Below, one piece after another: positions 16,626 to 64,000 of a stretch of 64,000 nucleotides of DNA. Position numbers and translations under genes: made by a program. This DNA is from a virus. Its lineage: Duplodnaviria > Heunggongvirae > Uroviricota > Caudoviricetes. The notes under the pieces were generated by a model. It did no database searches, was not told the origin of the DNA, and saw only the letters and a program-made list of their open reading frames with translations. The stretch is from positions 1 to 64,000 of the IMG/VR virus record IMGVR_UViG_3300029516_000004; one strand, 5' to 3'. Every line of letters begins with the position of its first letter. Within the stretch, counting starts at the first letter, position 1.

Positions 16626-19600
16626 ATGAACAAGCTATCTATGGGGGTGTTTCGCTGTTCAAGTGTCAGCGAAATATTGAAATACATTAGGGCAATAACA
16701 TCTCACCGAGCGCCGATTAAATACGGCGTGGAAAAGGTGGAAGGCAAAAGCTATGACCGACTGCGCCGGGAGGCGAATCAGAAGGCGATAGATTTGCTTA
16801 ATTCGCTGGTGGACGGCGCGACACTGACAGATGAACAGCGCCAGATCCTGGCTGGGTACACCGGTGAAGGCGGCATTGGCGGGTCCGTCTCCGAATATTA
16901 CACACCAAAGCCGATCGCTGAAGGTGTCTGGGAGATCATGAAGCTCTACGGCGCGGACGTAGGTAACACTCTGGAACCATCGGCGGGCACCGGCGTTTTT
17001 AATGAGACAAAACCGGTTGGTACGGTGATGACCGCGACTGAGATCAGCAGTGTTTCCGGTCGTATAAACCAGCTGTTACATCCGGAAGACAGCGTACAGA
17101 TTTCCCCGTTCGAACAGCTGGCTGTAAGCACGTCTAACGATTCATTCGACCATGTTGTGGGTAACGTTCCGTTCGGCGGTCGTGATAACACACGCAACAT
17201 CGATAAGCCTTACGCAGAAGAAACGGACATGGGTTCTTACTTCATGCTCCGCATGCTGGACAAGATAAAGCCTGGCGGATTCATGTGTGTGATTGTGCCG
17301 CCGTCCATTGTTTCAGGTTCAAACATGAAGCGGTTACGCCTGCGCCTATCACGGAAAGCTGAATTTCTTGGCGCTCACCGCTTGCCTACCGGTACTTTTG
17401 ACGCAAACGGGACCAGTACGGTCGTAGATGTGGTGCTGATGCGCAAACATCCGGCAGAGATGGCTGAGAAAATCCCCCTGGTGGATGAAAGCACTCTTGA
17501 ATCGGCAAATGTGCTTTGGCCAACGTTTATTTCTGGCAAGTGGTTTGAAAAGGACGGCCGCCGGTTTGTTCATGGCACCCAGGAGAAGGGATTCCAGGGG
17601 CGTATTGAGGTTCGTGCCGACGGGCAGATTGATAACCAGGATCTTAAAGCGAAGCTGATTCATCGTTTCGAAAGTCGTATCGACTGGTCTTTGCTCGATA
17701 TGGCTGAACCGTCACCGACCGCAGATGTTGTTGATGAAGGGGAAATGCGCCTGATTAATGGCGTATGGCAAAAATATGCTGGTGGTCGCTGGATTGAAGC
17801 TGATGCTGGTAAGGAGCTTAAGATTGATGCTGCCAGTTATGGCGCGGATAGCTGGGAGGCTCTTCAGCGTAACCTGACTACAACAGAAGGCCGTCTCGGT
17901 ATGACATTTACCCAGATGGCAAATGTCCGCGATAAGTACACCACATCAATCAGCGACGATATGGTGCAGCTGGTGGACTGGATTAACAGCCAGCCTGAAA
18001 AATACCGTGAACGCTTGTATCGTGGGGCGATGATTGGCCGGATGTTAATTGAATATCAGGATATGAAGGCCGCCGGGCATAGTGCTGAACAAATCGAACA
18101 GCAGCGCCTTTCTCTGGTGTCCCGTTTGCAGGCAGAGATTGACCGTTTTGGTAACCCCGGTCGCGGTCCGATAGCTAAATTATCGGGAAGCGGTGCGCGC
18201 GCCTGGTTTGCTTTCCGTGGTGCAATTAAGCTGGATGGCACTATTTCTGACGAGCTAACAGGAAAGCTGGTTACGCATGATTCCAGCGCCAGTTATGACT
18301 CCACCAGCTATCAGGACACCCTGCGTTATCTCTATAGCGATCTTACCCGCGATCCAATCCAGCTCGATGATTTCCGCCTTGCGTTTACCGGCGAACTGCC
18401 AGCCAGTGATGAAGAGTTGCTTAATTTATTGGCCAGCACCCCTGGTATTGCGGTTTCACCGTATGGCGGGATTGTTCCGTTCGCCCGCGCCACCAGCGGC
18501 GACATTAACGAGATAGTGGCTCCAAAACAGGAATTCCTTGCCACACTCCCCGACGGTCCAGTAAAGAACAACGTCCTTAATCAGCTGGCAGCGATCGAAG
18601 AGAAGCGCATCAAGACGCCAGCAGAGAATATCCGCTTTAAGCTCAATAGCCGTTGGTTCGACCGCTCCGTCATTCTGGAGTTTTTGCAGGAAAACGGCTA
18701 TCCGGATCTGCGCTATGTGCAGTCAGTGCAGCTGGAAGGCGACGAAATGGTTTCTGACACCTATCACGGTGGTGATGGTCTGTTCGTCGGGCACCGATAC
18801 GGTGTCGTCCAGCGCAAGGATAAAGAAACAGGCGAGATCCGCTACGAGTGGGACCGTAAATCAGGTGAAAACGCGACCGGGTTCCCGGCACAGCTGGAAA
18901 AGTATCTCAATGGTGCGCGTATCGGTGGCAAAGATAGCGCGACGGCGAACGGCTACCGCGAGCAGATGGCACTGCTTGAGGACCAGTTCAATAAGTGGAT
19001 CAAGACGCACGATCGCTACGATGAGCTGGTTGCCAAATACAACGATGTGTTCAATAGCAATATCCCGTATGAACACTCTGGCGATCCGCTTGGGTTGAAG
19101 GGATTAAGCGGTAAGCGCCAGCCATTTGATTACCAGAATAGCGAGGTGCGCCGACTGTCCGAAGATGGGCGCGGCATCCTGGGCTTCGGCACCGGGCTGG
19201 GTAAAACCACGACCGCGCTGGCGCTTGAGGCGTTCAACTATGAGAACGGTCGCTCTACCCGTACTGCGTATGTAGTGCCTAAATCAGTGCTGGAAAATTG
19301 GTATTACGAAGCAAAAGAATTCCTGAGTGAAGAGGCATTCAGTAACTACTTGTTCGTCGGTCTTGATGTGCTGATGGATGGCGATCAGATTCGCCAGGTG
19401 CCGGTGCTCGATGAGAACGGTAAACCTGTTCTTGGTACTGATGGCACTCCAGTTATGCACGATGCTCTTAAGCTGGCAGATGAAGCCACTATCACGGCGC
19501 GGATGAACGCGATCCCGCACTCAAATTACCGTGCAGTCGTGTTTACCAAAGAACAATACGCCCGCATTCCGCTACGTGATGACACCGTAGATGAGCATGC

Positions 19601-60743: not shown

Positions 60744-60922
60744 TTATTAACCTCATTACTGGTTGGGAAATAAGGTTGCGGTGCCGGGTGCCTCCCGGTG
60801 TCCTTTAGCTGGTTATCCACCGTGGACGGGGAAATAAGGAGAAATAATGGACAGATATAACCATTTCCCCGCGTGCGCTTAGCCGCATTCACCGCAACGG
60901 AAAGAGCATTCCTGGTGGACCT

Positions 60923-60947
60923 GTAGATTGGGATATGAACCCGTTAC
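60923..60947. repeat. 25-bp direct repeat copy A (loop of a 10-bp-stem hairpin)
   Basis: gtagattgggatatgaacccgttac flanked by aagagcattc / gaatgctctt. Confidence 0.7.
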
Positions 60948-61201
60948 AGGAGAATGCTCTTACCTGTTACGTGCTCCGTTTCGTGGAGCTAACGGCGGGT
61001 GATCGGGCCGCACCAGACTGGACTTATTTCAGCGTTATGCTCATGCCAGAGAATCAAACTGTGATGGTCGGTGCTGAACTCCGACACAGGGTTGTAGCAA
61101 GCCCCGCAAAGCGCGCACTACTGTAGTTGCGGCACATCAGCCTGTGCATTCACCACAATGTTGAGAACACTGGTTGTCACGCTGCAACGCAACATTTATT
61201 C

Positions 61202-61226
61202 GTAGATTGGGATATGACCCCGTTAC
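61202..61226. repeat. 25-bp direct repeat copy B (loop of a 19-bp-stem hairpin)
   Basis: gtagattgggatatgaccccgttac (24/25) flanked by acaatgttgagaacactgg / ccagtgttctcaacgttgt. Confidence 0.7.
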
Positions 61227-61392
61227 GCCAGTGTTCTCAACGTTGTTGTGCCGGTTACGGTTCCGGCCAGGCCTCTTCCTCAACGGGGTGTTCTCCATAC
61301 GGACTACCGTTTATTGGTCGTTCCTGCGGTTTATGTTGTGAAGCCAGATGCTTATCTTCTGGTTGCTTCAAAGAGCTGCACTTCATCACAAC

Positions 61393-61470
61393 GGTAAGGG
61401 TACTTCGTAGGGATTCGAACCCTCTGCCAAGCTCGGCGATCTCCGACGTCGCAAAATACCCTTACCTGTT
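61393..61470 (-). other. tRNA-like fragment closed by a perfect 10-bp stem
   Basis: GGTAAGGGTA...TACCCTTACC encloses a T-arm-like AGGGTTCGAATCCCT; no full cloverleaf. Confidence 0.25.
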
Positions 61471-61474
61471 GTGC

Positions 61475-61550
61475 TGGTGCCGATTAACGGACTCGAACCG
61501 CTGACATCCTGCTTACAAGGCAGGCGCTCTACCAACTGAGCTAAACCGGC
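61475..61550 (-). tRNA. tRNA-Thr (anticodon UGU)
   Basis: GCCGGTTTAGCTCAGTTGGTAGAGC...CTTGTAA...GGTTCGAGTCC...ACCA. Confidence 0.9.
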
Positions 61551-61552
61551 AT

Positions 61553-61628
61553 TGGCGATGGTGGATGGATTTGAACCATCGACCCGTTGATTAACAGTCA
61601 ACCGCTCTAACCGCTGAGCTACACCATC
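61553..61628 (-). tRNA. tRNA-Asn (anticodon GUU)
   Basis: GATGGTGTAGCTCAGCGGTTAGAGC...CTGTTAA...GGTTCAAATCC...GCCA; 2 nt from tRNA-Thr. Confidence 0.9.
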
Positions 61629-62294
61629 ACTTGCCGGGTACGTCTCCGGCGAGGGCTTCCACCTCCGTATGCTTTTCGGCGCACCGCGCCCTGGCTGCAA
61701 TTCGGTAACAGGGGATGCACAACCCTGGCTTCCAGCGTGATTAGCGCCTTCAGCATGACGGGATATACCCGTAAATTCGTGGAACTGTACCCAAAGTGCT
61801 GTTAAGCACCGCTGTTACGCTGAAAAGAAAACGCAACAGGAAAGGACGCTGACCAACAGATGGCCCCTTCTCGTTCATCTGGTTAATCACACCAGCGCCC
61901 TTACCTGTTGTGCCTCCCCGTTCCCTAATACACAGACGGGGACACTCTGCGGTCGATTTTTTTGACGGGGGACGACTCATACCCCGTGGCATCTGGTTTC
62001 TTAGGCCGCTACCATCATCAGATCATCGTTTGCATTTACTTTAATGGTCAGTTTCTAAACCGCCGCAAAGTCGCTAACCATGACGAAAACCCTGAAAAAA
62101 ACGCCCACCCGAAGATGGGCAAACTGGAAGCTCGTAACGCACTTCGGCGTTGCCACTTAGGCGCATGGTCAACCTGGCAACTCGGTGGTTTGTCTGGGAG
62201 GACTAGGCCCAGCCATGCTTACCGCCGCGCCTGTCGCGGCTAACAGCTAAATCGCTCTATAAATCACGATTCATTGAGGCGATATTACACTAAT

Positions 62295-62311
62295 AAATTT
62301 ATTAGAGCAAT
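62295..62311 (-). promoter_or_regulatory. C1 operator, perfect consensus, heading the tRNA-tci-ban transcription unit
   Basis: Minus strand reads ATTGCTCTAATAAATTT 17/17; overlaps dmt stop codon. Confidence 0.8.
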
Positions 62312-64000
62312 ATACCCAAAACATCATGAGCTACACCTCGAGTGTCCCCCTTACAAGACACAGAACGTCTGGCAAAAAGATGTTCCACTCTGAAACCACT
62401 GTCATGATAAAGCTCTCTGATGTTTGGCGCGCCACTGTTAGTAATGAGAACCTTTGCACCTCGACGATGAGCATCCGTCAACAGAGACACCAGGCGTTTT
62501 TGCTCTTCAAACTTAAAGTCATGACCGGAATAGTTCGTGAATCCCTCTGTATTTGGAAGCGGTTCATACGGCGGATCGCAAAAGATGACATCTCCTTCTC
62601 CGGCAGCTTCAATCACCGCTGCAAAATCACCGCATACAAACTCAGACCGCCCTTCCGCACCGAGGAAGGCTTCCATCTCCTGTAATGGGAAATACGGAGT
62701 TTTATACTTCCCATAACCGACATTGAACTCACCGGCCTGGTTGTAACGCGTCAATCCGTTAAAACAATGTCGGTTCAGGAACAAAAACGCCGCTGCGCGA
62801 TGTAAATCATCATAGACTTGTTTGTTAAACGCATTCCGTACTGCCAGGAATCCCTCCTGGGTGTTGTAGTCCAAGAAGAAACGATGTGCCAGAGTGATAA
62901 GTGAATGCGCCTCGCGTTGCAGAATCTTGTAAAAGTTAATCAGGTCAGCATTCACATCATTTAGCAGATTTTCCTGGTATCCGGCATTCATGAAGACAGC
63001 TCCACCACCGACGAAAGGTTCAATCAGGCGCTTCCCTTCTGGCAAATAGCGAAAGATTTGTTCCAGAACACCAAATTTTCCACCAGCCCATTTGAATATG
63101 GACCGTTCGAATTCTGCCGCTGGTTTAACTTTTCGCTCTTTTGTTTCACGCCCTTCATTCTGCCGACATGCAGCCTTGGTTATCCGCTCGCCAATCCAGC
63201 GCATTACTGGTATCGCCATACTATTGCCGATCGCTTTGTAACGCGGTCCGTCAGCTGCAAGCATTGCGGCCTCTTCTTCGTTCAAATCAGGAGAGTTTTT
63301 GCGAAGGTATGCCAGTTCATCTGAAGAAACTTTTTTACGCTTTTCCGTAGGGATCAATGTATGTCCATCAGGAAAACCTTGCAGCCTTTCACATTCGACA
63401 GGGGTAAGACGGCGCATTCTACCGTCGCCGAGCAATACAATTGGTGCTTCATGGTTACATGTCAAAGTTGGTGCCGAATTATCGGTTTTTATCTCAGCCC
63501 CTCCTTGCCCATGTGCCATGGCAACTATGTTTGTATCATCGCAAGATCTGATAGCGATGTCTGAAGTATATCTGGTAGTTTCCTTCCCCTCGCCTCTGCT
63601 CGGCGCAATATTCCGGCGCACGCCTTCGAACTCAAAAAGTACCGTTGCGGGATCGAGGTCTGTTCGAGCACTTGCGACAACAAACACGCGTCGGCGTCGT
63701 TGTGCCACTCCGAAGTATTGGGCATCAAGGATTCTCCAGGCCACCTTTCGCTGCGGTCCATAAATACAACCACACTGCGGCCACTTTGGAACATGGCAAC
63801 CGGTTTTGCCATCCCACCGCCAGAACGCGTTGCTTTTTCCTGATTCAGGTCGATCACCTGGTTCAAATGGCACATCTTCTCCAGCCAATCCAGCAAGGAA
63901 ACATCCGAAGGCGTTATCTGCCGATGACAAGACTCCTGGGACATTTTCCCAGACGATAACGGCTGGTTTGAGAAATGACTCAGCCCGTTTGTCGTCAATT
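62302..64000 (-). CDS. dmt: Dmt DNA methyltransferase (C5-cytosine MTase fused to Dam-like N6-adenine MTase), 5'-partial
   Basis: Frame open to window end; C5 motifs ENV (IVWENVPGV), QRRRRVF, RLTPVECERLQGFPD, GNSMAIPV, then Dam-like domain with FVGGGAVF and DPPY. Confidence 0.8.
   Translation of the reverse strand, partial: IDDKRAESFLKPAVIVWENVPGVLSSADNAFGCFLAGLAGEDVPFEPGDRPESGKSNAFWRWDGKTGCHVPKWPQCGCIYGPQRKVAWRILDAQYFGVAQRRRRVFVVASARTDLDPATVLFEFEGVRRNIAPSRGEGKETTRYTSDIAIRSCDDTNIVAMAHGQGGAEIKTDNSAPTLTCNHEAPIVLLGDGRMRRLTPVECERLQGFPDGHTLIPTEKRKKVSSDELAYLRKNSPDLNEEEAAMLAADGPRYKAIGNSMAIPVMRWIGERITKAACRQNEGRETKERKVKPAAEFERSIFKWAGGKFGVLEQIFRYLPEGKRLIEPFVGGGAVFMNAGYQENLLNDVNADLINFYKILQREAHSLITLAHRFFLDYNTQEGFLAVRNAFNKQVYDDLHRAAAFLFLNRHCFNGLTRYNQAGEFNVGYGKYKTPYFPLQEMEAFLGAEGRSEFVCGDFAAVIEAAGEGDVIFCDPPYEPLPNTEGFTNYSGHDFKFEEQKRLVSLLTDAHRRGAKVLITNSGAPNIRELYHDSGFRVEHLFARRSVSCKGDTRGVAHDVLGILL

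Follow-up and report, generated by a model that had tools for sequence, protein, structure and literature searches.

Long stems that lie between the units of polycistronic transcripts, are cut by the host RNase III and stabilise the ends so produced are well known from the early region of phage T7 (sites R1-R5) and from the processing of ribosomal RNA (rRNA). Small RNAs are also excised from the transcripts of phages and prophages: DicF of the Qin prophage matures from the dicB operon transcript through steps that depend on RNase III and RNase E, and the C4 antisense RNA of phage P1 (immI), whose targets a2/b2 are known, is matured by RNase P from a tRNA-like precursor. In phage lambda, Daniels, Subbarao, Blattner and Lozeron reportedly described RNase III processing sites in the Q-dependent late transcript in 1988 (Virology 167:568; PMID 2849240). 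Here we describe a family of long RNA hairpins, several of which stand in the leader of the ban operon of phage P1. The DNA analysed is a stretch of 64,000 nt from a tailed phage (IMG/VR record IMGVR_UViG_3300029516_000004, positions 1 to 64,000), referred to below as the window. We identify the window as phage P1, since 1001 nt about the hairpins match AF234173.1 at 99.8% identity. The ban operon lies on its minus strand in the order Pban, dicF-like RNA, tRNA-Asn, tRNA-Thr, about 725 nt, tciA, tciB, tciC, tRNA-Ile(CAU) and ban, and the hairpins are part of its leader, downstream of the C1-controlled Pban. Their stem of 19-23 bp is conserved and covaries; it works at the RNA level, in the same sense as the operon, where a terminator or a tRNA gives way to the RNA downstream.

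An earlier note on this DNA, made from the letters alone, had pointed to a 25-nt sequence occurring twice, 279 bp apart, each time within its own inverted repeat. Both observations were borne out. The two copies of the 25-mer, GTAGATTGGGATATGA(A/C)CCCGTTAC on the plus strand, are identical at 24 of 25 positions (Table 1), and a third copy with up to three mismatches was not found in the 64 kb, where 100 shuffles gave an expectation of 0. Copy 1 has arms of 13 nt (60899-60911 and 60952-60964), paired at 12 of 13 positions around a perfect 10-bp core, and its stem grows to 19 bp if a bulge and a U.U mismatch are allowed; the 23-nt arms of copy 2 (61151-61173 and 61228-61250) pair at 21 of 23 positions. 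We call the resulting hairpins, read on the minus strand, E1 and E2. The description of the 25-mer as a simple loop had to be given up, since its ends pair with each other (GUA/UAC) and its centre closes as GGG-NUCAUAK-CCC, making it a small sub-hairpin, in full GUA-AC-GGG-NUCAUAK-CCC-AAUC-UAC. The interior of E1 consists of this hairpin A and a 7-nt 3' bulge, within the frame CGUAAC-A-GGUAAGAGCAUUC ... GAAUGCUCUUUCC-GUUGCG. E2 is a three-way junction, in which the outer stem holds a 54-nt interior with hairpin A (61201-61227) and a hairpin B. In relatives, a U->C change turns a U.G pair of hairpin B into C-G, and its stems are compensated in the Yersinia-type modules described below.

E1 and E2 are two of four homologous long hairpins, or modules, of the ban leader (E0, E3, E2 and E1, in the order of transcription), which share the frame CACAAC-A-GGUAAG ... 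/ ... CUUWCC-GUUGUG. A covariance model of the family, R1, was built from 32 non-redundant modules, leaving out E1, E2, E0 and the P1 form of E3, and was run against the whole window on both strands with no filters. It found exactly four elements, E3, E1, E0 and E2, the next match reaching 11.6 bits (E 0.5); matches to the frame elsewhere in the window are background, with two or three mismatches. All four modules lie on the strand of the ban operon, in its untranslated leader. E3 begins 1 nt past the CCA end of tRNA-Thr, and its interior holds a T-arm of canonical form, GGGUUCGAAUCCC, which stacks on the long stem. In the stem signature of the family, 19 bp long, base pair 6 is followed by a bulged A, position 10 is either U.U or U-A, and a U.G wobble stands near the top. 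E1 shows the bulged A and the U.U and carries A-U in place of the U.G wobble; the diverged stem of E2 (23 bp, 21 of them paired) lacks the canonical GGUAAG.

The family is spread across phages. Its 19-bp frame reads CACAAC-A-GGUAAGAGCAUUG ... CAGUGCUCUUWCC-GUUGUG; the exact pattern CACAACAGGTAAG-N35-65-YCGTTGTG matches at least 120 viral contigs, and the loci fetched gave 76 distinct modules in a first set and 92 later. At least 34 classes of interior, at most 85% similar to each other, stand under this one frame. Lambda carries a canonical module at 44787-44862 (L127, 988-1063), 6 nt past the tR' (6S RNA) terminator and before S; no other composite stem between PR' and S is as long. A tRNA array on a 111-kb plasmid holds a further module, and so does a lambdoid prophage of E. 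coli, with the Q antiterminator on one side of it and the holin gene on the other; some modules abut the 5' end of tRNA-Arg, and most members belong to lambdoid late leaders with no tRNA nearby. Among 140 distinct module contexts, 29% follow a T-run and 24% stand just after a tRNA CCA end, and a RUGAAK trailer comes after 72%. Modules always point the same way as the transcript around them. The hairpin module is absent from the K-12 cryptic prophages DLP12 and Qin. The family is not in Rfam, and a literature search on the frame sequence gave no paper. The upper stem AAGAGCAUUG...CAGUGCUCUU is also kept at loci such as L269 and L279, where non-complementary sequence (UUCUUAUCUU / GCUUACACG) occupies the place of the lower stem; such loci may represent a module that is truncated or built in another way. 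The earlier note had missed the minus strand as the functional one, the set of four copies, the family that includes lambda and the Yersinia motif considered below.

The pattern of substitutions shows at which level the stem acts. In a 32-sequence alignment 95.1% of the cells pair, and 6 of the 19 pairs have changed on both sides; none of 500 shuffles attained these values, and slid controls paired at 34-65%. Because the modules were first collected by their frame, the invariance of the lower stem among them is partly an effect of collection, and covariation of the lower stem, for example ACUAUC/GAUAGU (also L076), shows up too when modules are selected by their upper stem. Across the 19-bp stem of the 92 distinct modules, G·U combinations number 118 against 9 for A·C, and one U·G wobble is kept in 70. 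This asymmetry, together with the covariation, indicates that the element acts as RNA; since the G·U pairs would be mismatches in duplex DNA or in RNA of the other strand, the RNA of the minus strand is favoured. The minus strand is also ahead of the plus strand in the model scores of E0-E3 and in the fold energy of E1. When P1-type and Yersinia-type modules were aligned together, MAFFT misaligned the outer stems, so that RNAalifold recovered only hairpin A; the architectures were instead compared from single folds. The folding and covariation check suggested earlier has thus gone in favour of the hairpins, which are conserved in relatives and have covarying stems.

Among the relatives aligned (P1, P7, D6 and SJ46) the leader varies by whole segments. 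P7 keeps the stem of E3 with an unrelated interior and compensating changes in the upper stem. In P7 (L003, 1638-1724) and D6 (L002, 1638-1724) the segment holding E1 gives way to tRNA-Ser(UGA) plus a module of different interior, so that a single 25-mer is present there; the two stand where P1 has 61145-60972. In SJ46 (L004, 1749 region) and some IMG/VR contigs (L032, L165, L207) a deletion has removed precisely the 279 bp that separate the 25-mers. The deleted forms do not agree in the variable base of the repeat, which implies two or more independent recombination events, and the repeat is a substrate for recombination. The leader is a patchwork of exchangeable RNA cassettes, pieces of which match phages of Klebsiella, Citrobacter, Salmonella and Enterobacter at 80-87% identity.

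Our preferred reading, to which we give a probability of roughly 60%, is that E1 and E2 are RNase III-type processing hairpins, which would separate the tRNAs from the mRNA and frame small structured RNAs. With 19 bp plus an inner 6 bp in E1 and 23 bp in E2, both have the length of an RNase III substrate, about 20 bp or two helical turns. A nuclease, presumably RNase III, would cut the 19-23 bp stem of a module around its interior of 30-70 nt. The cut would set the tRNA precursors free of the tciABC-trnI-ban mRNA, with defined ends protected by a stem, and the interior may be released together with the upper stem as a small structured RNA. The 25-mer would then be the apex of the part released or presented, and could serve as a sequence-specific recognition motif for a partner. 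RNase III is suggested by the length and form of the stem, by the report on the lambda late transcript and by the position of the lambda module as the longest stem between PR' and S; we take the published lambda sites to lie just past the 6S terminator, possibly within the hairpin at 44787-44862. Among the roles offered by the earlier note, that of processing signal is now the best supported, and its view of the region as a leader between the tRNAs and tciA that is non-coding and forms structured RNA is supported. Paired protein-binding sites are conceivable in the RNA, for the apical motif, and disfavoured in the DNA by the asymmetry between G.U and A.C.

Several points weigh against this reading. 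E2 fits the family model modestly, at 28.5 bits. RNase III needs neither a conserved apical motif nor the majority sequence of the lower stem, so that cleavage by itself is not a full explanation. Cutting could be made less efficient, or confined to one strand, by the bulged A and the U.U mismatch. Finally, the chimera left by the 279-bp deletion, made of the 5' leg of E2 and the 3' leg of E1, cannot form a long stem, and phages of the SJ46 type show that two intact hairpins are not essential.

The apical motif itself is conserved beyond P1. Its core, AACGGGKUCAUAUCCCAAUCUA, also tops modules of Yersinia prophages and of the Yersinia phage PY54, where the outer stem is entirely different (ACAUUCGCCUGAGCAUCA / UGGUGCUCAGCCGAAUGU) and the module stands just past a terminator or upstream of the holin gene. 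These Yersinia-type modules have the architecture of E2, with an outer stem, a motif-bearing hairpin A and a hairpin B, the stems being compensated, and they share with it the flanking CCGG-AACCGUAA-CCGG hairpin and a trailer formed by GGUGAAUGC and a hairpin. The stem closing the motif differs as well (CCUGUA/UACAGG in E1, CGUA/UACG in E2, CUGAAUA/UAUUCAG in the Yersinia type). In 22 Yersinia-type modules ascertained by the 3' leg, the motif varies at 4 of 19 positions and hairpin B, with compensation, at 17 of 23 columns. Of the species-representative genomes, only those of Escherichia (P1-like) and Yersinia carry the motif. Its recurrence atop differently framed modules shows that it is under selection. 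Another interior, CCCUUAUGGGGCUUGGCUUAAAUGCA, has also been retained under frames that differ and are compensated, so interiors are not mere filler, and the conservation of loop A suggests that the part released or presented has a function of its own.

From these same facts arises the most serious rival, which we hold to be possible though rather unlikely: instead of cleavage sites, the modules would be mainly display scaffolds or small-RNA genes, whose stem presents or excises an interior that binds a specific protein or RNA, with loop A of E1 and E2 perhaps mimicking a CAU anticodon stem-loop. It would account for the keeping of loop A and CCCUUAUGGGGCUUGGCUUAAAUGCA in different frames and for loop A being the most conserved part of the Yersinia-type modules outside the ascertained sequence. 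The 7-nt loop N-U-C-A-U-A-K on three G-C pairs varies at its ends, as anticodon loops do at positions 32 and 38, and several interiors contain canonical T-arms. The likeness of GGG-NUCAUAK-CCC to GGG-CUCAUAA-CCC of tRNAfMet, with its three closing G-C pairs, and of loop A to the tRNAfMet anticodon arm at 13 of 17 positions was noticed post hoc, and the stem matches over 3 bp only. Rfam tRNA models and ARAGORN make no call on the elements, and the interiors are mostly unrelated, leaving the stem as the common denominator of the family. Neither the window nor 2.2 Mb of related phage DNA holds a complementary site: in the window the complement of loop A gave nothing beyond chance 10-12-mers, and no complement of at least 13 nt to the interior of either hairpin was found elsewhere in it. 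The resemblance of the loop core to a 12-nt seed, raised by the earlier note, is due to chance: counting both strands, the window has 4 occurrences of GATTGGAT, near the roughly 2 expected. A spacer-like origin of the interiors found no support either, as 73 of them, compared with the 2.2 Mb by blastn-short, gave outside modules only chance 15-16-mers.

A bolder extension of the processing reading, which we regard as improbable, would be a phage-wide cassette system resembling microRNA precursors, in which one RNase III-cut frame excises many interchangeable small RNAs and the loop-A RNA mimics the CAU anticodon stem-loop, decoying MetRS, TilS, a VapC-type tRNAfMet nuclease or the 30S P site/IF3. 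Other candidates were set aside. An Hfq-type trans-acting small RNA (sRNA) of the Pas, HnrS or StxS type lacks a terminator at E1/E2 and a complementary site in the window; the Pas and HnrS prophage sRNAs have terminators of their own and other loci. A boxA (NusB/E) in the 3' leg (UGCUCUUU) is contradicted by free covariation of the GCUC part; put-type antitermination RNA by the position of the modules after terminators, not before them; and integron attC-like sites by an imperfect fit of the RYYYAAC/GTTRRRY cores and by the lack of integrase or cassette open reading frames (ORFs). A pseudoknot between loop A and the GUGAAU trailer fails, by inspection, for the G variant of the loop.

The proximity of the modules to tRNA genes suggests another origin, as decayed tRNA genes of a phage tRNA array, functionless or processed by RNase P/RNase E. 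Canonical T-arms in E3 and in other modules (GAGUUCGACUCUC; also L006 2027-2113 and L137), the real tRNA-Ser(UGA) in the equivalent segment of P7 and D6, and the succession of arms in E2 (stem, CAU-loop arm, second arm) would suit it. We nevertheless find it very improbable: on E0-E3 no Rfam tRNA model matches at E <= 10 and ARAGORN, which calls only the Asn, Thr and Ile(CAU) tRNAs, is silent; the stems measure 19-23 bp rather than 7; members mostly occupy lambdoid late leaders away from tRNAs; and strong covariation with a conserved frame speaks against decay. The T-arm interiors look like tRNA-like minihelices uncalled by ARAGORN and Rfam.

GenBank annotates two P1 genes without a known function, upl and plp, antisense to the modules, and the repeat might merely reflect a peptide, VDWDM(N/T)PL, shared by their products. 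Both 25-mers are in frame with these ORFs, which are intact in the 14 collinear variants examined. Yet Pfam gives nothing credible for Upl or Plp, and in the P1-like E. coli plasmid records listed with full coverage RefSeq/PGAP places no feature under the match. The variable sites of plp fall on codon positions 1, 2 and 3 in the numbers 6, 3 and 2, with no excess at the third, and plp overlaps tRNA-Thr. In P7, where neither gene is annotated, and in D6, non-homologous RNA modules replace the region; the similarity to the Yersinia type stops at the motif, with nothing conserved past MNPL; and covariation and the G.U bias fit an RNA of the opposite strand. Coding as the source of the repeat is thus hardly credible, and upl and plp are probably annotation artefacts antisense to structured RNA. 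To this extent the earlier statement that no credible ORF covers the region stands, even though GenBank does place both genes there. In lambda, orf-64 as annotated (44621-44815) reaches with its 3' end into the module; since it extends across the region of the 6S RNA and the terminator, its standing as a gene likewise seems questionable.

Elements acting as DNA (miniature inverted-repeat mobile elements, recombination linkers or sites for dimeric proteins) are just as hard to credit: near-identical phages do swap interiors with breakpoints in the conserved stems, and recombination between the 25-mers gave the deletions, but the 118 G.U against 9 A.C and the conserved U.G wobble would be meaningless in duplex DNA, orientation always follows the transcript, the few flanks inspected by eye show no target-site duplications, and the copies in the window are limited to the leader, with none outside 60893-61912.

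Table 1. Features of the P1 ban leader, with coordinates counted along the plus strand of the window. R1 scores are given for the minus strand (with E-value) and for the plus strand; folds are of the minus-strand RNA, with z relative to shuffled sequence.
Feature	Coordinates	Strand	R1 minus (bits; E)	R1 plus (bits)	Fold	Remarks
Module E0	61832-61912	-	38.1; 4e-8	34.9	z -4.9	upstream of the tRNA pair
Module E3	61387-61473	-	52.7; 5e-12	30.2	z -5.4	
Module E2 (copy 2)	61154-61250	-	28.5; 1.6e-5	22.7	-44.9 kcal/mol, z -4.6	diverged 23-bp frame
Module E1 (copy 1)	60893-60971	-	52.4; 7e-12	29.1	-35.4 kcal/mol, z -5.2	canonical 19-bp frame
25-mer copy 1 (loop-A motif)	60923-60947	-				RNA GUAACGGGUUCAUAUCCCAAUCUAC; GUA/UAC closing, inner GGG-UUCAUAU-CCC
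25-mer copy 2	61202-61226	-				RNA GUAACGGGGUCAUAUCCCAAUCUAC
Hairpin B of E2	61174-61195	-				GUUGCG-UUGCAG-CGUGAC, minimum free energy fold
Small hairpin	61251-61266	-				CCGG-AACCGUAA-CCGG, directly 5' of E2
Trailer and hairpin	61131-61153	-				GUGAAUGC + GCACA-GGCUGA-UGUGC, 3' of E2
upl (GenBank ORF)	60935-61126	+				antisense to modules; start codon inside 25-mer
plp (GenBank ORF, 'putative lipoprotein')	61127-61504	+				antisense to modules; overlaps tRNA-Thr
Pban operator/promoter	~62280-62325	-				C1-controlled; GenBank P1 record
dicF-like part of leader	62095-62240	-				homologous to Qin dicF region
tRNA-Asn	61553-61628	-				same transcript as modules
tRNA-Thr	61475-61550	-				same transcript as modules
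STnc100-like leader of tciA	60777-60896	-				Rfam RF02076, 34.8 bits, under the gathering score of 47
tciA start	60743	-				P1 record

The remainder of the leader holds further candidate RNA features. Its sole intrinsic terminator is the end of the dicF-like RNA (62121-62095), with none found at or after E1 or E2, and a consensus scan of the leader detected no internal sigma-70 promoter; because the terminator closes the dicF-like RNA, the tRNAs, the tci genes and ban appear to need read-through or a promoter that the scan missed. Between 59500 and 62500, Rfam at E <= 10 gave only three tRNAs and the sub-threshold STnc100 match beside E1; matches to microRNA families and YrlA are artefacts of long hairpins or tRNAs. 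The STnc100-like element adjoins the 3' leg of E1 and precedes tciA in P7 and D6 too; in Qin of K-12 (L235, about 19458-19590) it lies between dicF and dicB. Its inner hairpin covaries (CCGGG/CCCGG to CCUGG/CCAGG), and it may be a cis-regulatory leader common to tciA (TerB-like) and dicB genes. About 200 nt between E0 and tRNA-Asn (61629-61831, minus strand) are almost invariant in P1, P7, D6 and SJ46, whereas their neighbours vary, and this segment may be a further structured RNA. It includes a hairpin, ACGGG-UAUAU-CCCGU (about 61768-61782), that resembles the core of loop A. The small hairpin 5' of E2 also precedes the module in PY54 and in L140, and homologues of the trailer and its hairpin occur in the lambdoid contig L020, in PY54 and in P7.

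In this locus two doubtful genes of a well-studied phage give way to conserved structured RNAs, and the ban leader of P1 is tied to the late leader of lambda by an RNA module missing from Rfam and from genome annotation. If cleavage by RNase III proves true, phages would have in the frame a portable tool of general use for cutting tRNAs, small RNAs and mRNAs from one transcript. The many interiors that share the frame raise the possibility that phages express a diverse repertoire of small RNAs through it. The apical motif common to E. coli P1 and Yersinia phages offers a handle for finding a binding partner.

Compared with known systems, the closest is the lambda late (PR') leader, which like that of P1 has a long stem of this same family in untranslated RNA and in the sense of the operon. 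P1 has four modules in an early, C1-controlled operon of tRNAs and mRNA, whereas lambda has one in a Q-dependent late leader, and it lacks the conserved apical motif of E1 and E2. The Qin dicF region resembles the P1 leader in that small RNAs would be cut from the leader of a prophage operon, and the upstream part of the P1 leader is homologous to it; Qin, however, has no hairpin modules, and DicF ends at an intrinsic terminator, which the P1 modules do not have. C4 is likewise a small structured P1 RNA excised from a longer transcript, with loops that act as recognition elements, but it differs in locus and sequence, loop A has no complementary target in the window, and no Rfam match to C4 falls in the leader. 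STnc100 (RF02076)/PasD, the sole Rfam family with a partial match in the leader, is prophage-associated and linked to TerB-like genes such as tciA; the match covers the segment 3' of E1 and not the hairpins, and Pas sRNAs end at intrinsic terminators, unlike the modules. Intervening sequences of rRNA share with the modules a conserved stem around a variable, excised interior. The stems of T7 and of rRNA bear no sequence relation to the P1/lambda family, whose frame serves at least 34 unrelated interiors and in which, unlike in those stems, some interiors are conserved across different frames. As probable RNase III-type processing hairpins, the modules have two unusual traits, the use of one frame for many interiors and a conserved apical motif.

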